Assembly: GCA_001784585.1 (NCBI GenBank) | Contig: MFRN01000013.1 | Coordinates: forward strand, 93,894 to 157,893 | Length of the DNA: 64,000 nt | Origin: Candidatus Melainabacteria bacterium RIFCSPLOWO2_02_FULL_35_15 | GTDB taxonomy: Bacteria; Cyanobacteriota; Vampirovibrionia; 2-02-FULL-35-15 | Reading direction: 5' to 3' | Part shown: piece by piece, positions 10,170 through 52,122 of the stretch | Layout of the letters: every line of letters begins with the position of its first letter | Position numbering within the stretch: position 1 is the stretch's first letter | The notes under the pieces: model-generated | Told to the model about the DNA's origin: nothing | Databases searched by the model: none | The model's input: only the letters and a program-made list of their open reading frames with translations | Made by a program: the position numbers and the translations under genes

Positions 10170-11123
10170 CTAATTGTGGTTTATATTTAGTATCCCCTGA
10201 GTAAATCTAATACTGGCCATTCTGTCAAATGCTAAAGAAAGATGAGTCAGGTTATTAATATTTTCTGATATGTAATCAAGTCTTTTTAACATATCAACTA
10301 CTGCAGTACCTATCCATAAAAACCCCGATTGTGCAACAGGAGATTTTAAATCTATTGTATTTTTAGGATTATTTGCAGTGCCTGATTTTATGTTCGTATG
10401 AAACAGCAGAGCAGTTTCACCGGCAATACTTGCAGTATTTCTAATAATTGCTTCTAATTTTTTTAATCCTAACATTCCTAACACTGAGCCGGCTATTAGT
10501 GACGACGAAGAAAGGAAAACAGCATGAGCAAATTTTTTTATTTTGGATGGATTAGTATATATTTCTTTTATCATTTTAAAGCTTTCTTTAATGGTTGTTT
10601 CAAAACTACTTTGCCATCCTCTGTCTCTAAAATCTCCATTTACAACCTGTACATTTCCATCTTTATCAGGAACTGGATTTCCCTTGTCATCAACAATTTC
10701 ACGCTGATCAGTTATAATAGCAAAATTAATTAGTCCGCCACAAAGTCCTGTCGATACCCAAAGGTCATAGCCGCTACTGAACAGGGCTATTACAGGTGCC
10801 ATCAGGTAACCTATAAACGGAAAAACGTTTTTCTTCTGCCAGAGGTCAACTGCACCAATCACATGAATTGTGCTAAATGCAATTTTTACTAAAGCTTCAC
10901 TTAATGGTTCTAATTTTTCCTGCAGAGAATCTAAAAAATTAAAATTACCGTTTAAAAAAGTAAAAAGGCTGCATAGTGACGCACTCCCGTTAACAGCATA
11001 ATTAATATTTTTTTTTGTCTTGTAACTTGTTAAAATTTCATTTAATGAATTATTTATAAAGTCCTTGGTAGATAAAGAGTTATTACCAGAGCGAGGTACA
11101 TCTCCTTGAATAGCAACTGGCAT
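10170..11123 (-). CDS. Hypothetical membrane-associated protein (317 aa)
   Basis: It has 3-4 hydrophobic segments and no recognisable motif. It lies 68 nt downstream of preA on the same strand. Confidence 0.45.
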   Translation of the reverse strand: MPVAIQGDVPRSGNNSLSTKDFINNSLNEILTSYKTKKNINYAVNGSASLCSLFTFLNGNFNFLDSLQEKLEPLSEALVKIAFSTIHVIGAVDLWQKKNVFPFIGYLMAPVIALFSSGYDLWVSTGLCGGLINFAIITDQREIVDDKGNPVPDKDGNVQVVNGDFRDRGWQSSFETTIKESFKMIKEIYTNPSKIKKFAHAVFLSSSSLIAGSVLGMLGLKKLEAIIRNTASIAGETALLFHTNIKSGTANNPKNTIDLKSPVAQSGFLWIGTAVVDMLKRLDYISENINNLTHLSLAFDRMASIRFTQGILNINHN

Positions 11124-11145
11124 TAAAAATTATTCCTTATGAGGT

Positions 11146-11167
11146 ATTGTAATATTACGATTACAAT
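11146..11167. promoter_or_regulatory. Palindrome ATTGTAAT-N6-ATTACAAT between preA and the 317-aa gene
   Basis: A perfect 8-bp inverted repeat. It could be the operon terminator hairpin or an operator. Confidence 0.25.
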
Positions 11168-11191
11168 GAATTGTGTATTTTAAACTAAGTG

Positions 11192-12460
11192 CTAAGTAAG
11201 AGATTTGTAAGATTTCAATTGATTAGGATTTTTTGGATGATCTGCCCAGACAAGCTTTGGTTTACCAGCTCCAGCTGGAACCATCGTTATACAGTTTTCA
11301 ACAGGACAAACCAAACTACAGAGATTACATCCAACACAAGTGTCTTCTTTAATTTTTGGAACTCGTACTCCTGGTACTAAAGTAATTGACTGATGTGCAC
11401 CGTCTTCGCAGGCAGCATAACACAGCTGACATCCAATACATGTATCAGGACTTATATGTGCAATTATTTTGTAATTCAAATCTAACTCTTCCCATTTTCT
11501 TAGCTTCTTTGCAGCAATGCCTGTAAGATCACTGACTTTTTTCATTTTATGAGAATCCAGGTAGTCATTTAAACCTTCTTTTAAGTCACCTATAATTCTA
11601 AAACCATAATGCATAACAGCAGTACAGACCTGTACTGTACTTGCTCCCATTAAAAAGAATTCCACAGCATCCTGCCAACTTTCAATTCCGCCAATTCCTG
11701 AAACAGGAAGATGAAAGTCCGGATGGTTTCTTACTTCTGAGAGCATATTTAATGCAATTGGTTTTACTGCAGGACCACAGTATCCTCCATGTGTAGAAAG
11801 TCCACCGACACTGGGATTTGGCTCCATGGTATCAATGTTTATTCCGGTTACTGAGTTTATGGTATTTATTAAAGAAACAGCCTTTGCACCTCCGCGCTGT
11901 GCTGCCAGCGCTGGTTTTGTTATGTCTGTAACATTTGGGGTTAATTTTACAATTACTGGTTTTTTTGCAACTTCAGTTACCCAGGAAGTAATCCGTTCGC
12001 AAACATCCGGGTTTTGTCCTACAGCAGATCCCATCCCTCTTTCACACATACCATGCGGACAACCAAAATTAAGTTCAAAACCATCTATGCCTATATCTTC
12101 ACATCGTTTAACACAATCCTGCCACTCTTCTTTAGTTTCAAACATCATTGAAGCAATTAATGCATGTTTTGGAAATCTTTCCTTTACTTCTTTCATTTCT
12201 TTAAGATTAATTTCCAGAGGGCGATCAGTAATTAACTCAATATTATTTAAACCTATCATACGGCTATTTTTATAAGAAACAGCACTGTACCTGCTGGATA
12301 CATTTACAACAGGCTTACCCAGTGTTTTCCAGACTGCCCCACCCCAGCCGGCACAAAATGCATTCATAACCTGATAGCCAGTGTTTGTAGGCGGAGCAGA
12401 TGCCAGCCAAAAAGGATTTGGACATTCAATGCCTGCAAAGTTTGTTTTTAAGTCAGCCAT
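11192..12460 (-). CDS. preA: NAD-dependent dihydropyrimidine dehydrogenase subunit PreA (DHOD-like FMN domain plus 2x[4Fe-4S])
   Basis: A DHOD-like TIM barrel, then C-terminal CIGCQLCYAACEDG and CVGCNLCSLVCP ferredoxin motifs. Confidence 0.85.
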   Translation of the reverse strand: MADLKTNFAGIECPNPFWLASAPPTNTGYQVMNAFCAGWGGAVWKTLGKPVVNVSSRYSAVSYKNSRMIGLNNIELITDRPLEINLKEMKEVKERFPKHALIASMMFETKEEWQDCVKRCEDIGIDGFELNFGCPHGMCERGMGSAVGQNPDVCERITSWVTEVAKKPVIVKLTPNVTDITKPALAAQRGGAKAVSLINTINSVTGINIDTMEPNPSVGGLSTHGGYCGPAVKPIALNMLSEVRNHPDFHLPVSGIGGIESWQDAVEFFLMGASTVQVCTAVMHYGFRIIGDLKEGLNDYLDSHKMKKVSDLTGIAAKKLRKWEELDLNYKIIAHISPDTCIGCQLCYAACEDGAHQSITLVPGVRVPKIKEDTCVGCNLCSLVCPVENCITMVPAGAGKPKLVWADHPKNPNQLKSYKSLT

Positions 12461-13763
12461 TAAACTTTCCTTTCATCAGATATTCATGAATTCCACATGC
12501 AGCATCTCTGCCATCTGCTACGGCATTAACGACTTCTTTCCCGCCATTAATACAATCTCCACCAGCAAAGTATTTAGGATTTTTAGTTTGAAAAAAATTA
12601 TTTACCAGAATCTTTCCATTATTTAATTCTAAATCGGGTATAGAACTGTAAAAATTAATCATTTTTTCCTGTCCTGTAGCCAGAATAACCATATTACAGG
12701 GAATTACAAATTCTGAATCTTTAATCGGTATAATTTCGGATTTTTTACTGCCATTTTTTTTCTCAAGTTTGTTTTTTATACACTTTAAACCTTCAGTTGT
12801 TTCCTTCCCGAGGATCTCAAGAGGTGAAGCAAGATATATGAACTTAACGTTATTTTTTTTTGCAAGTTCAACTTCGAAAAAGTATGCATTTTGTTCTTTT
12901 TCAGATCGTCTGTAAATAACGGTTACATCAGCTCCGAGCTTGGAAGACTCTACGGCAGCATCTATTGCAGTATTTCCTCCGCCAAGTACGATTACTTTTT
13001 CCCCGACACTAATCTTTTGTTCTTTTTTCCTAAGTTCATAGATAAACTCACTGGCACCGCAAACACCTTTCAGGTTTTCTCCGGACACATTAAGTTTTTT
13101 TGATTTCCCAAGTCCTGTCCCTAAGAATATTGCATCATATTTTTTTTCAAGTTCATGTATCATAGCGTTATTTACAGGAGTGTTTGTTTTAATTTCAAAA
13201 CCAATTTCTGAAATATAGTTAACTTCCTGCAGGGAATCTTTATTTGTATATTTGTACGGTGCCACTCCATAAGTATTTAAGCCACCTGCTTTTTCGTTTG
13301 CTTCGTATACGACTACATCATGCCCTAAAACTGTAAGTCTGTGTGCACAGGCAAGTCCTGCCGGTCCCCCGCCAACTACAGCTATTTTCTTATTTGTCGG
13401 TAAGCCTTTTTTAAAGAAGCAGATATTATTTTCAATTGCCCAGTCAGTTGCACATGCCTGAAGCCTGCCAATATTAATGGGTCTTTCATTTAAATGATTG
13501 TAAACACAGGCACCCTCACATAAAACCTCTGTCGGACAAACATGTGCACAGGATTTTCCTAAAATATTTTGAGTAAATATTGTTTTGGCTGCACCTTTAA
13601 CATTATGTGTCATAATTTGTCTGATAAACATTGGAACATCAATTGATGTCGGACAAGCCCTTATGCAAGGAGCATCGTGACAGAATAAGCAACGTGATGC
13701 CTCAACAAGCGACTCAGTCTTTGTCATTCTTGGTTTTATACTGGAAAATTTATTTTCTGTCAT
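12453..13763 (-). CDS. preT: Dihydropyrimidine dehydrogenase subunit PreT (GltD-like FAD/NAD oxidoreductase)
   Basis: N-terminal Cys cluster, then two Rossmann GxGxxG motifs (VVGGGPAGLACA, VLGGGNTAIDAA). It overlaps preA by 8 nt. Confidence 0.85.
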   Translation of the reverse strand: MTENKFSSIKPRMTKTESLVEASRCLFCHDAPCIRACPTSIDVPMFIRQIMTHNVKGAAKTIFTQNILGKSCAHVCPTEVLCEGACVYNHLNERPINIGRLQACATDWAIENNICFFKKGLPTNKKIAVVGGGPAGLACAHRLTVLGHDVVVYEANEKAGGLNTYGVAPYKYTNKDSLQEVNYISEIGFEIKTNTPVNNAMIHELEKKYDAIFLGTGLGKSKKLNVSGENLKGVCGASEFIYELRKKEQKISVGEKVIVLGGGNTAIDAAVESSKLGADVTVIYRRSEKEQNAYFFEVELAKKNNVKFIYLASPLEILGKETTEGLKCIKNKLEKKNGSKKSEIIPIKDSEFVIPCNMVILATGQEKMINFYSSIPDLELNNGKILVNNFFQTKNPKYFAGGDCINGGKEVVNAVADGRDAACGIHEYLMKGKFNG

Positions 13764-13766
13764 GAT

Positions 13767-15092
13767 CTAGGATTTATTTACTGATAGTATTTTCAGAGAT
13801 TCATTAAATACATTAAGCATAAAATCAACTTGTTTTTTATTTATAGAAAGTGCCGGTGCAAGTCTTATTACATTTCCAGAAAGTCCGCCTTTACCAATGA
13901 GGAGTCCCCGATCCTTGCATAATTCCATAAGCTCTGCGCATTCTTTTATAGCATGTTCTTTTGTATTTCTGTCTTTTACAAGTTCAATTCCTATAAGCAA
14001 CCCGCGCCCTCTTACATCACCAATAATTTTGTACTCATTCATCAGTTCTTCAAGACCCTTACGTAAATATTCTCCCATTAGTTTTGTATTTTTTATCAGG
14101 TCTTCTGCTTCAATTATTTCCATAGTCTTTAAAGCCTGCATAGCCTGGTAAGGATCACCGCCAAATGTATTAAAGTACAGTTTGCCTGACAGAGTATTTG
14201 CAATGTCTTCTTTCATTAATACAGCTCCTATTGGAGCACCATTACCAAACCCTTTCGCCATAGTGATTATGTCGGCATCAATTTTTAGTGATTTAGTAAG
14301 AAGAAAATCTTCCCCGCATCTTCCGGCCCCGCTTTGCACCTCATCACTGATATATTTACCGCCATATTTATGTACAATTTTTGTAACTTCATGAAAATAT
14401 TCTTTTCGTGGGGTAATTACCCCGCCAATTCCCATTACTGGTTCTGCAATAAATGCAGCAATTTTTCCATGCGTAGAGGTTTGAATAGTAGTTTCTACAT
14501 TTTTTGCACATTCAAGATGACAGCTTTCAGGTTTTTGATTAAATGGACAGCGATAACAATATGGTTCAAGTGCAGATGTTACAGATGACACCGGCTGGGC
14601 TTTAAATCGCCAGGTATGATGACCACAGTTTGAAAGCGTACCTGATGTGCCACCATGATAGCCATGCCTGAGATTAACTACAATTGTTTCACCTGTTGTA
14701 TGGCGGGCTGCCATAAAAGCAAGTTCATTTGCTTCTGAACCTGAATTTGTAAATGAACATTTATTAATTCCATCCGGTGCTTCAGAGATAAGTTTTGTCA
14801 CCAGGTCAGCAGGATGCTGATTTAAATAAACTGTGGAAGTATGCTGAATCTCATCATTTCTAATCATCTTTATTAACGCTTCTTGTATCTCCGGATGATT
14901 GTGCCCGACTGAATTACAGACAATACCTCCAATTGCATCCAGATATTCAGTACCTTTTTCATCGTAGACATAGCTACCTTTTCCTTTTACAAGCTGTAGC
15001 GGATTTTTATAGTATAAAAAAGCAGTAGGAAGAAAATTTTTCTTCCTAATCTCAACTAATTCTTCTTTTTTTGTTTTTGTCTTAACTTCCAA
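13767..15092 (-). CDS. Class III aminotransferase (beta-alanine or omega-amino acid:pyruvate/2-oxoglutarate transaminase)
   Basis: PLP-fold AT-III motifs (FIAEPVMGIGGVI, DEVQSGAGRCG, the Lys in TMAKG). Its position in the pyrimidine-degradation operon suggests it acts on beta-alanine. Confidence 0.8.
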   Translation of the reverse strand: MEVKTKTKKEELVEIRKKNFLPTAFLYYKNPLQLVKGKGSYVYDEKGTEYLDAIGGIVCNSVGHNHPEIQEALIKMIRNDEIQHTSTVYLNQHPADLVTKLISEAPDGINKCSFTNSGSEANELAFMAARHTTGETIVVNLRHGYHGGTSGTLSNCGHHTWRFKAQPVSSVTSALEPYCYRCPFNQKPESCHLECAKNVETTIQTSTHGKIAAFIAEPVMGIGGVITPRKEYFHEVTKIVHKYGGKYISDEVQSGAGRCGEDFLLTKSLKIDADIITMAKGFGNGAPIGAVLMKEDIANTLSGKLYFNTFGGDPYQAMQALKTMEIIEAEDLIKNTKLMGEYLRKGLEELMNEYKIIGDVRGRGLLIGIELVKDRNTKEHAIKECAELMELCKDRGLLIGKGGLSGNVIRLAPALSINKKQVDFMLNVFNESLKILSVNKS

Positions 15093-15108
15093 TTGCCCTG
15101 TCTGCCCT

Positions 15109-15978
15109 TTACAGTGCTACCAGCTCTTTATATGTTTCCGGTCGTCTGTCTCTATAAAACTGCCAGAGATCCCGAGCTTCTTTGATTTCATCCATATTAA
15201 TATCACAAACTAAAAGCTCATCTTTGTTTCTTGAAGCTTGTACCAGAATTTGTCCTTTTGGATTAACAATATAAGATGAACCGTAAAACTCGCCAATATT
15301 CCATGGAGCTTCTGTTCCAACACGATTAATCGCACAGACAAAGTATCCGTTTGCTACAGCATGTGCCGGCTGTTCTACTTTCCAGATATATTCTGATAAG
15401 CCAGCTACAGTAGCAGAAGGATTAAAAACAATTTCAGCTCCGTTTAAACCCAGACATCTTGCACCATCGGGGAAATGCCTGTCATAACAAAGATAAACAC
15501 CAATACTTCCATATTTTGTTTTAAAAACCGGATAGCCAAGATTTCCAGGCCTGAAGAAAAACTTTTCCCAGAATCCTTTAACCTGCGGGATGTGATTTTT
15601 CCTGTATTTACCAAGATATTTACCATCTGCATCAATAACAGAAGCAGTATTGTAATAAACACCTGTCATTTCCATTTCATAAATCGGTACAATAATTACC
15701 ATATTATATTTTTTTGCAAAGTTGCACATAAGCTGTGTAGTATGACCATCAGGAATTGGCTCTGCAAGGTCATACCACTTTGTATCCTGTGACGGACAAA
15801 AATAAGGACCTGTAAACATTTCCTGGAAACAAAGCATCTGAACTTTTTTACCGGCTGCTTCTTCTATATAAGGAATGTGTGCATCAATCATTGCTTTTAC
15901 ATGTTCTTTACATGAAGACTCTGCAGGCAATTTATTTGCCATTTGTATTAATCCGATTTTTACTGTTTTTGATGTCAT
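15109..15978 (-). CDS. Beta-ureidopropionase (N-carbamoyl-beta-alanine amidohydrolase, CN-hydrolase family)
   Basis: Carbon-nitrogen hydrolase fold (E-K-C triad region CFQEMF, GVYLCYDRHFP). The operon context supports the call. Confidence 0.8.
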   Translation of the reverse strand: MTSKTVKIGLIQMANKLPAESSCKEHVKAMIDAHIPYIEEAAGKKVQMLCFQEMFTGPYFCPSQDTKWYDLAEPIPDGHTTQLMCNFAKKYNMVIIVPIYEMEMTGVYYNTASVIDADGKYLGKYRKNHIPQVKGFWEKFFFRPGNLGYPVFKTKYGSIGVYLCYDRHFPDGARCLGLNGAEIVFNPSATVAGLSEYIWKVEQPAHAVANGYFVCAINRVGTEAPWNIGEFYGSSYIVNPKGQILVQASRNKDELLVCDINMDEIKEARDLWQFYRDRRPETYKELVAL

Positions 15979-17420
15979 GAAATTGCTCCTGTTAATTCTT
16001 TCTCTTTTTTATACTCTTTATTATACTGACTGCGTTTAATATATTTCCCAAATCCTTTTTTGATTAAGGCTTGAGCGTTATCTATAGCAATTGTTCCTCT
16101 AAGTATAACTGTTTTACATTTGCCCTGAACCTGCCAGCCTTCAAATGCAGAATAATCACATTTGTGATGGTGTGTTTTTGCTGAGAGCGTATGTTTTATA
16201 TTCGGATCAAAGATTACAATATCAGCATCAGCTCCTGCAGCAATAGTTCCTTTTTTAGGAAACATACCAAAAATTTTTGCAGCTTGTGTAGAAGTTAGTT
16301 CAACAAACTTGTTTAATGAAATTTTTTCTTTCAGCACACCCTCGGAAAATAAAAGTTCCAGCCTGTGTTCAATTCCAGGAATTCCGTTTGGGATTTTTGA
16401 AAAGTCACTAATGCCCATACGTTTTTGATCCATACAAAAAGGACAATGATCGGTAGCTACTGTATGAACAAGATTTTGAGCAATACCGCTCCAGAGAGCA
16501 GCTCTGTCTTTTTCTTTTCTAAGGGGAGGACTCATTATCCATTTTGCCCCTTCAAAGCCGGGACTTTCATAAAGTGACTCATCCAGCAAAAGGTATTGAA
16601 TGCAGGTTTCAGCATTTACTTTTTGGTTTCGTTTTGTAGCTTCACGAACCCTGTTCAATGCTGCCTCACAGGTCATATGAACAATGTAAAGCGGATGACT
16701 GCCCTGATATGCCATATCTATAATTCTTCCTGTGGCTTCAGCTTCTGCAATCTCAGGGCGTGTAAGGTAATGATACACAGGTGATAAATTACCTTTTAAT
16801 TTTGCTTCACTGACAAGCTCATCAATCATATCCCCATTTTCACAGTGTGAAATAACCATACCACCATATTTACCGGCTTCTTTCATAAGCCCGATAATTT
16901 GTCTGTCATCTATCATCAGGGCACCTTTATAAGCCATAAATATTTTAAAAGAAGAGATTCCGTCTTTTTCACAGATCTCTTTAATTTCTTTTTGAGTGTT
17001 TTTGTTAAAATCAGTAACTCCCATATGAAAAGCATAATCACAGACAGCATTTCCATCTGCTTTTCTATGCCATTCATCAATAGCACTTTTCAGAGACTTC
17101 CCTTGAGTTTGAATAGCAAAATCAATGATAGTAGTGGTACCACCGTATAAACCTGCAATGGTACCAGTCTCAAAAGTATCACTGGCACAGGTCCCCATAA
17201 ACGGAAGTTCCATATGAGTGTGGGGATCTATGCCTCCGGGAAAAAGATAACAATTTTTTGCATCAATAATTTCATCAGCATTAAAATTTAAATTTTTTCC
17301 AATGGTATGGATTTGTTCACCTTCTGTATAAACATCTGCTTCATACTTGTCGACAGCTGTAACAAGCAGTCCATTTTTAATTAATAATGATTTCACCATA
17401 TGCCTGAGTCTTTGATCCAT
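15975..17420 (-). CDS. hydA: Dihydropyrimidinase / D-hydantoinase
   Basis: Cyclic amidohydrolase motifs (PGGIDPHTHM, a carboxylated Lys region, HCENG). 481 aa. The start may instead be the internal Met, MVKSLLIKNG. Confidence 0.85.
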   Translation of the reverse strand: MDQRLRHMVKSLLIKNGLLVTAVDKYEADVYTEGEQIHTIGKNLNFNADEIIDAKNCYLFPGGIDPHTHMELPFMGTCASDTFETGTIAGLYGGTTTIIDFAIQTQGKSLKSAIDEWHRKADGNAVCDYAFHMGVTDFNKNTQKEIKEICEKDGISSFKIFMAYKGALMIDDRQIIGLMKEAGKYGGMVISHCENGDMIDELVSEAKLKGNLSPVYHYLTRPEIAEAEATGRIIDMAYQGSHPLYIVHMTCEAALNRVREATKRNQKVNAETCIQYLLLDESLYESPGFEGAKWIMSPPLRKEKDRAALWSGIAQNLVHTVATDHCPFCMDQKRMGISDFSKIPNGIPGIEHRLELLFSEGVLKEKISLNKFVELTSTQAAKIFGMFPKKGTIAAGADADIVIFDPNIKHTLSAKTHHHKCDYSAFEGWQVQGKCKTVILRGTIAIDNAQALIKKGFGKYIKRSQYNKEYKKEKELTGAIS

Positions 17421-18922
17421 CTTTTAATGGTTACTTTAGTATCTGTATAAAAATCTATACATGCCTGTCCATGAGCTTTAGTATCACCAAAAAATGAAGC
17501 CTTTGTTCCGCCAAAAGAAAAAAATGCCATAGGTGCCGGAACACCAATATTTATGCCGATCATACTAGGGTCAACTTCATATGAAAACTGTCGTGCCGCT
17601 GCACCGCTTGATGTAAAAAGTGAAGCAGTGTTTGCATATTCAGAACTATTTAACCATTTAACAGACTCATCAAAGTCTTTGGTTTTTGCTAAGCAGATAA
17701 CCGGTCCGAAAACTTCTTCTTTAGCAATTCTCATATCCGGCTTAATTTTACCAAGTACAGTAGGCTTTAAGAAATAACCATTTAAATGATCGACATCTTT
17801 ACGACCATCAATTAAAATCTCTGCTCCTTCGTCGATGGCGGATTGTATAAGTGCTTTAACTCTTTTTTTTGCATCTTCGGAAATAAGCGGTCCGATACCA
17901 GAGCCTGGATCCAGCCCGTCGCCAATATTAATCTCTTTTGCTTTTTTTGTAAGTTTTTCTTTAAGTATGTCATAGGTCTCTCCTGCACAAAGAACTACTG
18001 AGCCTGCAAGGCATCTCTGTCCTGCACATCCGGTGCAGGACTCAAAAACAGTTTTTACAGTCAGTTCCATATTTGCATCAGGTAAAACTACCATAAAGTT
18101 TTTAGCACCGCCAAGAGCCTGTACTCTTTTGCCATGTGAGCTGGCAGTTTCATAAACGTATCTGGCTACAGGAGTCGACCCGACAAATGAAATGCCTTTT
18201 ATATCAGGATGAGTGCACAATGCATTCACAATTTCTTTGCTTCCGTTAACCAGATTTAAAACACCTTTTGGCATACCGGCTTCTTCAATAAGTTTAAAAA
18301 TCATAATTTGCGTAAGCGGCACTCTTTCACTGGGTTTTAAAACAAAAGTATTTCCAGCCGCTACAGCAAAAGGCCAAAACCAGAATGGTACCATTGAAGG
18401 AAAATTAAACGGTGTAACAGCAGCAAATACTCCAAGTGGTCTTTTTATGGCATGACAATCAATGCCTGAAGCAATATCTTCAAGCGACTTTCCCATAAGC
18501 AGTGTGGGCATGCCACAAGCCATTTCAATCATTTGAATTCCACGGCGAACATCTCCCCGGGATTCTGCTAAAATTTTTCCATTTTCCTGTGTACATATTC
18601 TGGAGAGATCTTCAAAGTTTTTTTCCAGCAAGGTTTTAAGTCTGAACAAAATTTGAACTTTGTCAATGACCGGAACTTCTCTCCATGTTTTAAAAGCTTC
18701 TTTGGCGGCTTTCACTCCGCCATCTGCATCCTGTGAGGTTCCTAAGGGACACTTACCTATTATTTTTTTATTTGCCGGATTAATAATATCTACTGTTTCA
18801 GTTCCGATTGACGGAATCCAGCTACCATTAATATAGTTTTTTACCGTAGAAATATTTTGATCTTTATCAGTATTTCTCTCCTTTATTAGAATTCCTGGTG
18901 ACTTTTCATCCTTAAGAGCCAT
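17393..18922 (-). CDS. mmsA: Methylmalonate/malonate-semialdehyde dehydrogenase (CoA-acylating)
   Basis: ALDH fold with VLKPSE and the catalytic Cys in the CTGCAGQRC region. It is the first gene of the operon. Confidence 0.85.
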   Translation of the reverse strand: MALKDEKSPGILIKERNTDKDQNISTVKNYINGSWIPSIGTETVDIINPANKKIIGKCPLGTSQDADGGVKAAKEAFKTWREVPVIDKVQILFRLKTLLEKNFEDLSRICTQENGKILAESRGDVRRGIQMIEMACGMPTLLMGKSLEDIASGIDCHAIKRPLGVFAAVTPFNFPSMVPFWFWPFAVAAGNTFVLKPSERVPLTQIMIFKLIEEAGMPKGVLNLVNGSKEIVNALCTHPDIKGISFVGSTPVARYVYETASSHGKRVQALGGAKNFMVVLPDANMELTVKTVFESCTGCAGQRCLAGSVVLCAGETYDILKEKLTKKAKEINIGDGLDPGSGIGPLISEDAKKRVKALIQSAIDEGAEILIDGRKDVDHLNGYFLKPTVLGKIKPDMRIAKEEVFGPVICLAKTKDFDESVKWLNSSEYANTASLFTSSGAAARQFSYEVDPSMIGINIGVPAPMAFFSFGGTKASFFGDTKAHGQACIDFYTDTKVTIKRWIKDSGIW

Positions 18923-18969
18923 ATTTCCTCCATTACGGTGTTTGAAATTTGTTTATTTTGTGTACTGTG

Positions 18970-19005
18970 CTGGAAATCTTACAATTTATAAATGCTTTAT
19001 GTCAA
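18970..19005 (-). promoter_or_regulatory. Candidate sigma70-like promoter for the pyrimidine-catabolism operon
   Basis: On the minus strand, TTGACA is followed by 18 nt and then TAAGAT, about 50-80 nt upstream of the mmsA ATG. This is a visual match only. Confidence 0.25.
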
Positions 19006-19074
19006 TTATATTAAAGGAACGTAGTTACTGCCTAGCTATGTTACTAAGTCTAACCTGACTAACTTACAAAGAAA

Positions 19075-19102
19075 GGTTTTGCCTGGTTTATCCAGCAAAA
19101 CC
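19075..19102 (-). ncRNA. Hairpin H1, member of the conserved RUAAA-loop hairpin family
   Basis: The minus-strand reading is GGTTTTGC-TGG-ATAAA-CCA-G-GCAAAACC followed by TTTCTTTGT. It is collinear with H2 (49954..49981), with compensatory changes in the inner stem. Confidence 0.35.
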
Positions 19103-19288
19103 TGAAAAATGATACAAAAGGCAGACTGCGAGCACTTTGCAAAGCCCGACCTGCGAGGTACGAAGCAAGGAGGGCAGTAGACAAAAACGAAATGTAGAGA
19201 TATCCTGGCTTCAATTTAACCTTACTTTAACTAAACATGCTTATTATGCCTTTTATAAATCCAAAAAATGATTTAGGGAGGAAATACC

Positions 19289-46461: not shown

Positions 46462-46486
46462 AGAGACGCCCCGTCGGAGCGTCTCT
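46462..46486. other. GC-rich hairpin AGAGACGC-N9-GCGTCTCT between the 218-aa gene stop and the aroC start
   Basis: An 8-bp GC-rich inverted repeat. The T-run lies on the plus strand only. It may be an attenuator or RNA-stability element. Confidence 0.3.
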
Positions 46487-47527: not shown

Positions 47528-48876
47528 CTACAATTAAACTCTTTTATTAACTCATCAAATACAATAAACTCATCCGTAGGATGTGTAAAAATATTTCCAT
47601 ATGTTTTTTCTTTTGAATCTTCTTTTGTTATGCTGATAGAAATACCACCTTCACCTTGTGTTTCCTGCAACTTGCTACAGAGTCTTTCCAGTTCACTTAC
47701 TTTATATTTCAATCCTTTTTTTACAGGTGATGCTGAAGTTTCCTGAACATCTTCAAGATATTTTTTAAGCTGATCATTAACAGGTACATTAGGATCAAAT
47801 CGAAGACCCAGTCCTGAAATTAATGCAGCTTTTAAAACAGCAGCATTTCGTACTTTTCCAGCACTGATATTAGTCTGTCCTTCGGTACTTATCACATATT
47901 CTATTGCCTTTTGTAAAACTTTTAAATAATTATATGTCTTTTTAAATTCTGTTAGAGCTTTATTTGCTTCATTATTGTTTTCACCAAGTGTCCCTTTGAA
48001 ATAATTTTTAAGTTGAGTTAATGAAGTATCAGTATTAATTTTAGGAAAAACCTTTGTAATTGAATCATTGTCACTGACTAAAGTACCTTCTACATAATGT
48101 TTTGCTGCAGAGTATACTATTGCAAACTCATCCGGCACAAGACGATCTAAATCAAATTTCCCGGCTTCAATTTCATTCAGGTCTAAAAATTGCCCTGTAA
48201 TTGTTTGGGGGAGAGCATTTTTTTCAGAATCTGGGGTAGTTAAGCAAACATCTCTTGTTCCAATTATGTAACCTGTTAAAATAGCAAGTCTGTCTTTTAA
48301 ATCCGGGAAATAAATTTTAGCATCGATTCCATTTCCATTAATCAGTTCTATTTCTGGTCTACCCCTGTATTTAGTAACAATATTTTTAATTTCATCATTT
48401 GTCCAGCAAGTAAATAAATTTCTGGCTTGGGCTATAGTATCGCCGTCAGGGTTTCCATTTAAAATATTTAAAGAAAGCCCCAGTACCTTATCAGAATTTG
48501 CAGAAACTTTTGCTACTGAATTTCCTATATTTTTTACAAGAGTTTCATCTGTCAGAGCAAATGGAGCAGTTTTTACATCAGCTTGTTTTTCTTTTTTTAT
48601 CAGCTTCCATACTTTGTATAAGAAATAACCTGAAAATATAGCTCCACCACCGGCTAAAAATTTAAAGAACCAGTCTGGTACACTATCTTTCCCGGGAATT
48701 ACTTCAGCAAATGTTCCAAATGTGAAAGCTGCTGCTGCTCCTACTGCAGCTCCGCCCAGATTTGCTCCTAAGCCGGCAAATGATTTGGCATCATCATATA
48801 AACTGAATCCTGAAGAATTCTTCTGTGTGCTTGGTCTTGCCAGTATGGCGTTGTTCGGTATGGCTAAAGTCGTCAT
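47524..48876 (-). CDS. Hypothetical membrane-anchored protein (450 aa)
   Basis: Gly/Ala-rich hydrophobic N-terminal segments, otherwise no motif. It is probably co-transcribed with 48962..49660. Confidence 0.45.
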
Positions 48877-48961
48877 AAAATATCATAAATCAAAAAAATA
48901 TTAAATAAATTTGTTATTAAAAAAGTAGGATTTATTTTTTGTCAACCTCCTTTTATTTTAG

Positions 48962-49660
48962 TTAAGTAGCTGATTGGCGACCAAATATAAATGCAGCAAG
49001 TCCTATAATTGCAGCATAAACTATTCTCCCCAAAGTTTTATTCCAGTTCAATAAGTCCCACCAATCAAATCCTTTTTTTTCGTTAATAGCAACTTCTACA
49101 TTACTTTCTTTACTATCTGCCTTAACTTTAAATGGAGCTGTTTTAGTACCAACAGCAGAGCTGGTAAAAGTCAGAGTTTTTCCATCAGCAGAGAGTCCCC
49201 ACTTTACCCCATCATGTTCAATTTCTTTACCTTTGTCTGGAGCATTTTGTCCTGTTAGAGTACTACCTTCTGGCAAAGTAATGCTTCCTTGTTCACTAAC
49301 TTTTGCTTCTCCGGTTACCTTTGCTGCACCTCCTGCTGCTGCACCTCCTGCTGCTGCACCTCCTGCTGCTGCACCACCTGCTGCACCACCTCCTGCTGCT
49401 GCACCACCTGCTGCACCACCTCCTGTTGCACCTCCTGCTGCTGCACCACCTGCTACTTCATCCTTCTTAACAGCTTGCCGTGCTATATGTATCGCTTTAG
49501 CTGGATCAAATTCTTTTTTATCATTTTGTAATCCTGAATCCCCAATTACAGCATCTTCCTTAACACCCAAGACATCAGCTATATTCTTAGCAGTTGGGTT
49601 TGATATAGCTGACAATTTCGTTACTTGTGCTGCAGTTAGCTCTACTCCACCAATTTTCAT
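48962..49660 (-). CDS. Tail-anchored protein with a (GGAAA)n low-complexity repeat
   Basis: 232 aa with about 14 Gly-Gly-Ala-Ala-Ala repeats and a C-terminal TM helix (IVYAAIIGLAAFIFG). Confidence 0.5.
   Translation of the reverse strand: MKIGGVELTAAQVTKLSAISNPTAKNIADVLGVKEDAVIGDSGLQNDKKEFDPAKAIHIARQAVKKDEVAGGAAAGGATGGGAAGGAAAGGGAAGGAAAGGAAAGGAAAGGAAKVTGEAKVSEQGSITLPEGSTLTGQNAPDKGKEIEHDGVKWGLSADGKTLTFTSSAVGTKTAPFKVKADSKESNVEVAINEKKGFDWWDLLNWNKTLGRIVYAAIIGLAAFIFGRQSAT
49322..49456. repeat. Imperfect 12-18-bp tandem repeat encoding the (GGAAA)n array
   Basis: The unit gcacc(a/t)cctgctgct(gct) is repeated about 9 times, visibly, with varying length. Confidence 0.7.
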
Positions 49661-49953
49661 TATTTTTATCTCCTTAGTTTAAATACTATTTTTTAGTATT
49701 TATAACTTTTGGCTTTTTTTACAGTTCTTCAATACTTCCCTTAATTTTATATGATTCTTGAATTTAAGAACAAGCCAAAATGCTATATACATAAACTTTA
49801 CTAAATTTTAACTTTTCAAGTCAAGGCCAAATTCATTTTTAAAGATAAAACTATTCTTAAGTTTTTTTTCTTTTACCTGCCGCAACACAATTTTCTAATA
49901 AAATTGCGTTGCTTTGCAAAGATTTTTGGTATACCTTAATACAGCATTGGGCA

Positions 49954-49981
49954 GGTTTTGCCGAGTAAATCGGACAAAACC
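49954..49981 (+). ncRNA. Hairpin H2, family member
   Basis: GGTTTTGC-CGA-GTAAA-TCG-G-ACAAAACC followed by TTTCAGTT. It lies about 55 nt upstream of folK. The hairpin GCAAC(A)CAATTTT-ctaat-AAAATTGCGTTGC lies just upstream of it. Confidence 0.35.
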
Positions 49982-50033
49982 TTTCAGTTATAATAAATGA
50001 TTAACATGGTTAAGAAGAATTCTCTTAACCTGA

Positions 50034-50588
50034 ATGTTAAAAAATAAAACAAACAATAATTTAAAGGCATCTAATTTGTCATCACTTAAAACAGTTTATC
50101 TTGGCATTGGGACCAATAAAGGCACCAGAGAAACAAATATTTCAAGTGCTATTAACCTGCTTAGCAATATAAAAGGAATAAAACTTTTAAAAATTTCAAA
50201 GATGCTAAAAAATCCTCCCCAGGAAGGAATTAAAAGTGGTTATTTTTTAAACGGGGCCATAAAGCTTCTGACATCATTGACTCCGCTTGAGCTTTTAAAA
50301 GTGTGCAAGAAGATAGAGAAGAAGCAAGGACGCAAGGAAACAAGAATACAAAGAAGGAAAATATCAAGAGTTATAGATCTCGATATTTTATTTTATGGAA
50401 ATGAGATTATTAATACGAAAGAACTAACCATCCCGCATCCAATGATTGAAAAGAGATATTTTGTTTTAATTCCGCTTATGGAAATTGCAAAAAGATTTGT
50501 ACATCCTCTTTTGAAGAAAAGTATAAAGGAATTGTATATCGACTACTGTGCCCCTACCAGCATTAAAAACTGTGCAAGTGCTGTATGA
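50034..50588 (+). CDS. folK: 2-amino-4-hydroxy-6-hydroxymethyldihydropteridine pyrophosphokinase
   Basis: HPPK pattern (VYLGIGTNKG ... IDLDILFYG ... IPHP). The start is uncertain; an N-terminal extension is possible. Confidence 0.7.
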   Translation: MLKNKTNNNLKASNLSSLKTVYLGIGTNKGTRETNISSAINLLSNIKGIKLLKISKMLKNPPQEGIKSGYFLNGAIKLLTSLTPLELLKVCKKIEKKQGRKETRIQRRKISRVIDLDILFYGNEIINTKELTIPHPMIEKRYFVLIPLMEIAKRFVHPLLKKSIKELYIDYCAPTSIKNCASAV

Positions 50589-51616
50589 AGGCTTGAATAT
50601 TGACTTGGGTGCAGCTTTGGCTGTCTGTATTTTTTATGGATTTCAAGCCTTAGGGTTGGAATTGAAAAATCTTCAAAAAGTAAATGATTTATTGTCTTCA
50701 TTTCTTTTGAAATAACATCTTTTGAATCGTAGCCGATTTTTTTAAAATCTTTTACCTTAAGCATGCTGGTCAGCAGGTGTAAATATTCTGTTCTGTTTAT
50801 CAGTGAACTGTTATTCCAGCTATTTAAAATTAATTCATGCGGGCTGTTCCAGTTTTCTATGCCATGCAGGATTAAAACAAGTTTTAAATTTGTTTTTTTA
50901 ATCAGCTGACTTAAAAAACTTACATAAGGAGAGGTTAAATAATAAACAGGATCACTGGCTGCACAGTAAGAACTTACCAGGGAGTGGCATCCTGTTAATT
51001 TATGCAGTAATACTGCCAGTGAGCCGGTGTAAGATTCAGAAGAGTGCCAGTTTCCATCAGTAAAAAATGCAGTTGAATGCGGGGCCAATACTAAAGCCGG
51101 AATTTCACCACCGTAATATTCATAATCAAATTCACCTTCAGGTGGATACTGTTCAGATCTTCTTTTTAACTGTGCCTCAAACTGAGTGGACCAGGCAATT
51201 GTGTCAAAATTTGTAGGATGATTTACCAGATAAGAAAGAGCTTCTTTTAATTTATTAAAACGTGCTTCAGAGTGAAATAAAACCCATGGGCTAAATGGCT
51301 CATTTCCTACTACTACGACCTGTTTTCCCTGCCCGTGAGCATAAAACATTTCCATGGTTGCAGATTCAGTGACCTGTGTAAGATTTGCCAGCAGAGAATC
51401 TGCCCTGTCTATTAGTGACAGTGAGTGTTTTACTGCACTTGTAGATTCACCTACGCTTTTTACAAAACCAGTTAAATCCAAATCCAGTGGATTGGCTACA
51501 GTAATGCCTGATCGTATAAAGGTGCTTGCAGCATAAGCTTTCCAGTCAGTAGAAACTCCAAGCGAAGGATCACTGAGTGCAATTGGCGGCCCTGATAAAT
51601 ATATTGATGTTGGCAT
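50543..51616 (-). CDS. Fusion protein: N-terminal nucleoside 2-deoxyribosyltransferase-like domain plus a C-terminal amidohydrolase-like domain
   Basis: The N-terminus has SIYLSGP and FYAHGQGKQVVVVG, as in the NDT/YtoQ fold. The C-terminus has PALVLAPHSTAF and LILHGIEN, which look like N-formylglutamate amidohydrolase-like motifs. The second call is weak. Confidence 0.45.
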   Translation of the reverse strand: MPTSIYLSGPPIALSDPSLGVSTDWKAYAASTFIRSGITVANPLDLDLTGFVKSVGESTSAVKHSLSLIDRADSLLANLTQVTESATMEMFYAHGQGKQVVVVGNEPFSPWVLFHSEARFNKLKEALSYLVNHPTNFDTIAWSTQFEAQLKRRSEQYPPEGEFDYEYYGGEIPALVLAPHSTAFFTDGNWHSSESYTGSLAVLLHKLTGCHSLVSSYCAASDPVYYLTSPYVSFLSQLIKKTNLKLVLILHGIENWNSPHELILNSWNNSSLINRTEYLHLLTSMLKVKDFKKIGYDSKDVISKEMKTINHLLFEDFSIPTLRLEIHKKYRQPKLHPSQYSSLHTALAQFLMLVGAQ

Positions 51617-51624
51617 AAAGGATA

Positions 51625-51805
51625 GCCCTATTCCCTCCTCTGTTATTACTCAGGTGGCTCTTGCGGTGACGTTGCTCCTCAGAGCCACCTTTGCATAGAC
51701 CGCTCGGTTTACTGAATGAATCAGGCAAACCTCGCTTCCTTAGATGGCCCAGATTTAGGACATGATCATGATGCACTTGGAGTACCTGAGCAGTTATCCT
51801 CCTCT
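51625..51805 (+). ncRNA. Structured GC-rich element R2 (candidate ncRNA or leader), about 180 nt
   Basis: GC content is about 50% in a roughly 33% background. It has a 10-bp hairpin AGGTGGCTCT...AGAGCCACCT and the segments GCTCTTGCGGTGACGTTG and GGAGTACCTGAGCAGTTATCCTCC, which are collinear with R1. CTCAGGT can pair long-range with ACCTGAG. Confidence 0.35.
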
Positions 51806-51921
51806 ACTTAACCCATTTATTTTTATATATACCACTTTTTAATGAAAACTGGGAATGTATAGGTCAAGCCTATAAGGATTCAGTAAAAAGACTGAGGAAT
51901 AGTTAAGAACAGGATAAGAAT

Positions 51922-52122
51922 ATGCAACACGACTATCAGAAACGAACTTACGACAGCTGGCAGGAAGTGGATACTGAAACACTTTTGCAGGGACTTGTTT
52001 TAATAAAAGAAAAATTTTTACAAATCGATCCACAAACAGATGATTTTGCACTTACCGGGAATTTGCTTATAGATATTTATGAAATTGCTGAAGAGTTAGA
52101 GAAGAGATTGTTATTTGCATGA
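51922..52122 (+). CDS. Small acidic hypothetical protein (66 aa)
   Basis: The ORF has an RBS and sits immediately upstream of the acyl-CoA dehydrogenase. Confidence 0.3.
   Translation: MQHDYQKRTYDSWQEVDTETLLQGLVLIKEKFLQIDPQTDDFALTGNLLIDIYEIAEELEKRLLFA

Follow-up and report, generated by a model that had tools for sequence, protein, structure and literature searches.

The GC-rich segment of roughly 180 nt that an earlier note had singled out between a divergent gene pair is very probably a small, non-coding mobile DNA repeat, a MITE of 156 nt that occupies positions 51642-51797 of the window (the whole 64,000-nt stretch of DNA that was analyzed). MITEs are short non-coding, non-autonomous DNA transposons, with imperfect terminal inverted repeats that are recognized by a transposase acting in trans. 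We favor this reading because the segment has discrete ends, terminal inverted repeats and locus-specific target-site duplications, because it occurs as dispersed copies, including a deletion derivative, because related genomes retain empty sites, and because it lacks coding capacity. The earlier note had recognized a discrete, GC-rich, self-complementary and repeated unit, an observation that is confirmed, but its interpretation as an RNA motif is not. We are also confident that the family is new, in a little-studied phylum, and that the kind of element is ordinary and not a new class of RNA. What had been a candidate structured RNA motif is better described as a transposable element and, being a transposon, should stay off lists of candidate riboswitches or sRNAs.

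Boundaries and internal structure of the element

The genes on either side are as previously described. An NDT-like ORF of 357 aa starts at 51616 on the minus strand, its N-terminal part resembling Nuc_deoxyri_tr2 and Nuc_deoxyrib_tr only weakly, with Pfam scores below threshold. On the plus strand, a small ORF of 66 aa begins at 51922, which is 117 nt away from the element, and an acyl-CoA dehydrogenase gene comes after it. The reported GC enrichment also holds (50.3% for 51625-51805 versus 34.9% for the window), the element itself being 48.7% GC. Both of its ends are abutted by the same octamer, CCTCCTCT, at 51634-51641 on the left and 51798-51805 on the right. The two copies match perfectly (8/8), as expected of a target-site duplication, and the CCUCC tracts that had been read as anti-SD-like at both ends are indeed present, as parts of these duplicated octamers.

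The element begins with the terminal inverted repeat GTTATTACTCAGGT (51642-51655, plus strand) and ends with its counterpart on the minus strand (51784-51797; ACCTGAGCAGTTAT on the plus strand), the left end agreeing at 11/14 positions with the reverse complement of the right. In the copies at loci L015 and L011, described below, the right terminus is GTAACTGCTCAGGT, whose final base, C, differs from that of the window copy; the 11/14 match is that of GTTATTACTCAGGT with GTAACTGCTCAGGT over the first 14 nt. An unbiased scan of element termini gave a 10/13 match and recovered both full copies in L015/L054. The long-range pairing proposed earlier between CTCAGGT and ACCTGAG is real, ACCTGAG lying at 51784-51790 as stated and CTCAGGT at 51649-51655 instead of 51645, but it is the core of these imperfect terminal inverted repeats. 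Within the element, a perfect 10-bp hairpin spans 51652-51690, exactly as reported, with arms AGGTGGCTCT (51652-51661) and AGAGCCACCT (51681-51690) and a 19-nt loop, and a second hairpin, GGTTTACTGAATGAATCAGGCAAACC, spans 51706-51731. Both are present in all predicted folds. GC-rich perfect 10-bp hairpins occur twice in the window and in none of 30 window shuffles.

The element has no plausible coding capacity: its single open frame encodes 52 aa, and this peptide has no homologue among 5.8 billion proteins. The same protein search, which would also have caught copies miscalled as genes, gave no match.

Prokaryotic MITEs are defined as shorter than 500 bp, with inverted repeats of 4-30 bp and, in young copies, flanking direct repeats, and they are typically AT-rich (PMC10969869). 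The element agrees with this description in its size and non-coding nature, its inverted repeats, its locus-specific duplications, its occurrence at multiple sites and the contrast of filled and empty sites. It departs from the AT-rich composition, a typical but not a defining feature, and its short and imperfect terminal inverted repeat is a caveat to the assignment.

Empty sites in relatives and copies within one population

Relatives were found by scanning species-representative genomes with the NDT-like protein, which yielded five Melainabacteria loci (L001-L005) at 63-88% protein identity. The divergent gene pair is kept in all of them, and the GC-rich element is absent from the orthologous intergenic region in every case (5/5). 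When the element and one octamer (51642-51805) are removed, the window is collinear with the closest relative, L001, with no large gap, and aligns to it with a score of 110.5 instead of 62.5; a single copy of the duplication suffices to align with the L001 empty site. Together, the absence in relatives and the collinear empty site indicate that the segment is a lineage-specific insertion into AGAGGAGG, a site that presumably lies in the 5' UTR of the NDT-like gene.

Outside the element, a promoter-like block at 51813-51855 (minus strand), between the NDT-like gene and the small-ORF/acyl-CoA dehydrogenase operon, is strongly conserved in six Melainabacteria genomes and contains invariant alignment columns. 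Its sequence (CCCA…TnAAAAGTGGTATATATAAAATnAAATAGG) contains an extended -10-like motif, TGGTATATA, that reads toward the NDT-like gene. The block also holds a near-palindrome, CCAsTTTT…AAAAsTGG, and its equivalent in L001-L005 is found at about 2860-2960. The block may serve both sides as a promoter or operator; its promoter role is putative, because a simple sigma-70 scan missed it for want of a -35 match. The segment does physically belong to the 5' leader of the NDT-like gene and follows this conserved block, but the proposal that it is a dedicated leader is not supported.

We propose that a DDE-type transposase supplied in trans would mobilize the element, and that repair of a staggered cut in the target would duplicate 8 bp on each side. 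Insertion into AGAGGAGG, between the conserved promoter-like block and the NDT-like start codon, would have lengthened the presumed 5' UTR of the NDT-like gene, originally about 40 nt, to about 200 nt. The element would then be co-transcribed with this gene, and the insertion could affect its expression. The locus would offer a natural example in which 164 bp have been inserted between promoter and start codon, with an effect on expression that could be measured.

Further copies came from a metagenome scan with one 19-mer, TGGAGTACCTGAGCARTTA, which is common to the element and to a short fragment at 20092-20110 of the window. It returned 26 loci, 24 of which were unrelated genes or chance matches; the only true copies were L011 and L015, both on a single 141-kb contig, Ga0156182_119. 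L015:1577-1731 is 98% identical over 155 nt to window positions 51642-51796, with unrelated flanks, and the same identity over the same length, likewise with unrelated flanks, holds for L054:10499-10653. The copy in L015 is inserted in the last codons of guaA (…IEWE) and has its own perfect 8-bp duplication, TCCCATTC, so the duplications are specific to each locus (CCTCCTCT in the window, TCCCATTC at guaA). With the GTAA at its end, the inserted element completes the Glu codon and adds a stop codon, while the original GAG-TAG persists on the far side. A relative, L064, in which the flanking DNA is 92-96% identical, has no element at guaA. L064:3740-3770 keeps GCAGTTAC, which equals the last 8 nt of the element, beside a single TCCCATTC, and the guaA stop codon there is the one from the element's terminus; this arrangement suggests that the L064 site may be a scar of imprecise element loss and not a never-occupied site.

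The copy at L011:99-182 lies upstream of a sigma-70 gene and carries a 71-nt internal deletion (corresponding to window 51662-51732) that takes out the loop and 3' arm of the first hairpin together with the next hairpin; the duplication around it has decayed. Yet another right flank, the fourth, is seen in L061; it adjoins a SpoU methylase gene and begins with the octamer TTATATTC, and this distinct flank indicates a fourth copy. Only about four copies were thus seen, with metagenomes scanned by the one 19-mer, and all are in one Melainabacteria population: in the leader of the NDT-like gene, at the guaA/STAS junction, upstream of the sigma-70 gene and beside the SpoU methylase gene. Near-identical copies occur in both orientations relative to the neighboring genes. 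The unbiased terminus scan, which sought GT…AC units that have inverted ends and are flanked by 8-bp duplications, yielded no copies beyond the known ones, its other matches being at the null rate of 0-2 per 64 kb. An internal 22-mer of the element had no match in the viral contigs scanned, and neither this element nor the second one described below had a blastn match in the plasmid collection.

The element also accounts for the fragmentation of this population's assemblies at this locus. Of 14 contigs from independent assemblies that encode the identical NDT-like or small-ORF protein, nine terminate within 51657-51784, and the element is present in each of the four that run across the site. 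In L061:899-1502 the left flank of the guaA copy is connected to the right flank at the SpoU methylase locus, and in L063:1271-1322 to that at the sigma-70 locus; both are either assembly chimeras or products of recombination across the repeat. The samples that yielded the guaA/STAS contigs also yielded the window contig (ERZ4903125, ERZ27254836, ERZ28564302 and ERZ27254845), and because of these shared samples the copies most probably belong to one population genome.

A second repeat family and the search for a transposase

The segment had originally been presented as the second copy of a motif (R2, the first being R1). There is no second copy of its sequence in the window, but there are a 23-32 nt fragment at 20083-20114 and a repeat of about 165 nt at 19024-19188 with the same architecture. 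This repeat, the representative of a second MITE-like family, is probably the R1 of the earlier note. It is 165 nt long and GC-rich, and it lies between divergent genes, upstream of an aldehyde dehydrogenase gene. A copy in L015/L054 (L054:9757-9921), between different genes, is 94.6% identical to it over 166 nt. The flanks of the window copy, GGAACGTA (19016-19023) and GAAATGTA (19189-19196), agree at 6/8 positions; the L015/L054 copy is bounded by the 8-bp repeat TCTTTTGT/TCTTTTAT, and L064 has a single TCTTTTAT at this site and no element. The termini of the family, GTTACTGCCTAGC and GTTTTTGCCTACC, match at 10/13 positions in the L015/L054 copy. Two Logan contigs start inside 19024-19188.

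Like R2, this family has an 8-bp duplication, GTT…AAC termini and the common pattern GTwwyTrCyyAG. Elements of both families are 156-165 nt long and have a GC-rich core, with a similar central hairpin when one element is reversed: the second hairpin of R2 (51706-51731) resembles, in opposite orientation, a hairpin at 19076-19103. Their global similarity, however, is weak (z = 2.7 with one element reversed, 0.5 with both in the same orientation). This combination of shared architecture and weak similarity indicates that R1 and R2 are two related MITE families and not copies of one RNA motif. One transposase plausibly mobilizes both.

The aldehyde dehydrogenase gene heads a minus-strand operon (10170-18922) that resembles reductive pyrimidine catabolism and also includes genes for dihydropyrimidine dehydrogenase-like subunits, a class-III aminotransferase, a carbon-nitrogen hydrolase and a dihydropyrimidinase-like amidohydrolase. 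Another candidate for R1, a GC peak at 49234-49523 (66% GC), was rejected as an Ala/Gly-rich coding repeat. The window's top GC peak (66%), at 49320-49450, is not an RNA but a repetitive Ala/Gly-rich stretch (…AGGAAAGGATGGGAAGG…) in a 232-aa minus-strand ORF without a Pfam match.

The short fragment at 20083-20114 (plus strand) resembles the loop segment of R2 (GGTGACG) fused to the right end (TGGAGTACCTGAGCAATTAC). It has a BLAST E value of 0.012 within the window and a spliced alignment score of 45, compared with a null of 16 ± 2, but its assignment is weak because no flanking duplication is recognizable. An 85-nt segment at 20066-20150, immediately after the stop codon of a 257-aa ORF, encloses this 32-nt R2-like stretch and is bounded by the inverted repeat GTGTGTAAA/TTTACACAC. 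The segment may be a degenerate, deleted copy of R2 or a third small element.

Pfam identified no transposase domain in window ORFs of at least 120 aa, a dozen of which have no Pfam match of any kind, or in the ORFs of L011 and L015. A cognate autonomous element would be expected to share the ends GTWAYTRCTCAGG or GTTWYTGCCTAS, and no matching end pairs spaced 80-3000 bp apart were found across about 130 kb from this genome and related ones. One pair of end-like sequences (5919-5934/7181-7196), ordered and oriented as the ends of a 1.3-kb element would be, was rejected because it lies inside an intact PutA gene.

An IS3-family insertion sequence at L060:640-1843 encodes an OrfA with HTH_Tnp_1 and an OrfB with rve and has TG…CA ends. 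It is 47% GC, compared with 31% for its flank, and it abuts the STAS gene, 2 nt from what is, in other samples, the left boundary of the MITE; its flanks form no duplication, so the contig may be chimeric. We rejected it as the autonomous partner, as neither its ends nor its remainder have significant similarity to either element. Target duplications of the IS3 family are 3-5 bp, not 8 bp.

RNA-based readings and comparison with known systems

RNA of minus sense, which is the sense of the NDT-like mRNA, folds better than shuffled sequences (z = -3.5, 0/200 shuffles), whereas RNA of plus sense has no excess stability (z = -0.3). This strand asymmetry keeps a superimposed RNA role under consideration. 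The whole window gave no Rfam match at gathering score, and a local search of 51400-52000 to E ≤ 10 gave chance-level matches only (E > 6). Searches of 48800-50100 and 18900-20250 at E ≤ 5-10 likewise gave nothing meaningful. A consensus scan of 51550-51960 for sigma-70 promoters and terminators, which is a weak test, detected no sites.

A regulatory side-effect of the element, or an sRNA derived from it, is possible by analogy, since the processing of an mRNA can be changed by a MITE in its untranslated region, as is seen with Correia and ERIC elements (PMC10969869). We consider it improbable that things go further, with the two families marking an uncharacterized Vampirovibrionia transposase and the copy in the NDT-like leader having been co-opted as a post-transcriptional control or a source of sRNA. 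The case for such co-option is that this copy is fixed in every sampled population and that its mRNA-sense strand folds unusually well.

Several near-identical intergenic copies, with a GC-rich structured core that folds significantly on one strand, would also be expected of a multi-copy sRNA gene family, that is, a stand-alone transcript with its own promoter that has been duplicated around the genome, and MITE-derived sRNAs are known in Coxiella (PMC10969869). Gene duplication, however, makes neither locus-specific perfect 8-bp direct repeats nor inverted termini; one copy is inserted in the final codons of guaA, and a deleted copy persists without both hairpins. The consensus scan, weak as it is, detected no promoter-like or terminator-like site within or beside the element, and covariation is not assessable because the copies are 98% identical. 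We regard a family of this kind as very unlikely.

The remaining RNA-based proposal, a dedicated cis-regulatory leader (riboswitch or attenuator) of the NDT-like gene or of the small-ORF/acyl-CoA dehydrogenase operon, is highly implausible. It would fit the position of the element between the conserved promoter-like block and the start codon, the stability of the NDT-like mRNA-sense strand (z = -3.5) and the SD-like AGAGGAGG that flanks the element on that strand, but the last of these is accounted for as the duplicated target. A riboswitch would be expected to be conserved upstream of orthologous genes and to match a curated RNA family; instead, the orthologous leader lacks the element in five relatives, one of them at 88% protein identity, Rfam yields no match even at E ≤ 10, and no terminator-like site was found. 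Also against it are the near-identical copies at the guaA 3' end and ahead of a sigma factor gene, which face either way relative to the genes beside them, and the distribution of the element has by itself largely refuted this reading. The earlier suggestion of a stand-alone sRNA or a dedicated leader is left unsupported by a unit that is absent from five relatives, recurs in unrelated contexts and brings its own 8-bp repeats.

That the element is a REP/BIME mobilized by RAYT, or an IS200/IS605 Y1-mobilized, palindrome-associated element, is scarcely credible: although it is GC-rich, hairpin-containing and intergenic, and a separate REP-like palindrome exists in the genome, elements of the REP and IS200/IS605 types leave no target-site duplication on insertion and have no terminal inverted repeats, whereas two copies here have perfect 8-bp duplications and 11/14 inverted termini, and 156 nt is far longer than a REP unit. 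The palindrome in question (AGAGACGCCCCGTCGGrGCGTCTCT; 46462-46486 and L011:2458-2482) is GC-rich and perfect and lies just downstream of genes in two unrelated intergenic regions, forming a REP-like or terminator-like short repeat family.

With the element read as a MITE, it joins a lineage, the Melainabacteria/Vampirovibrionia, that is sister to Cyanobacteria and in which MITE families are now documented; our search of the full-text literature on MITEs in this lineage returned a single paper, in which the two terms are no more than mentioned. Taken as an analogy, the best functional counterpart of the 5' UTR insertion is provided by the Correia elements (CREE) of Neisseria, which are MITEs of about 100-160 bp that often lie between promoter and gene. 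The target duplication of Correia elements is a TA dinucleotide and their inverted repeats measure about 26 bp, whereas the present element duplicates 8 bp, has repeats of about 14 bp and shows no detected promoter-like site; the resemblance is functional only and does not extend to family membership. Correia elements are co-transcribed, their inverted repeats form mRNA hairpins that are cut by RNase III, and they can carry promoters or IHF sites (PMC10969869).

In architecture, the element is almost the same as QMITE2 of Coxiella burnetii, in which a core of 113-145 bp is combined with inverted repeats and with direct repeats of 7-9 bp, and the transcript is highly structured; some QMITE copies are described as giving rise to sRNAs (PMC10969869). 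The inverted repeats of QMITE2 are longer, at 23-29 bp (PMC10969869), and its host is unrelated. Nezha and other cyanobacterial MITEs of Anabaena/Nostoc are in the same size range, about 130-170 bp, and likewise have terminal inverted repeats, flanking direct repeats and a stable predicted structure (PMC3184786). For Nezha, unlike the element in the window, a parent-like insertion sequence, ISNpu3, has been identified. The mobility of Nezha was inferred from filled versus empty sites in related genomes (Zhou et al. 2008, via PMC3184786), which is the test that our own filled-versus-empty-site argument applies to the Melainabacteria element.
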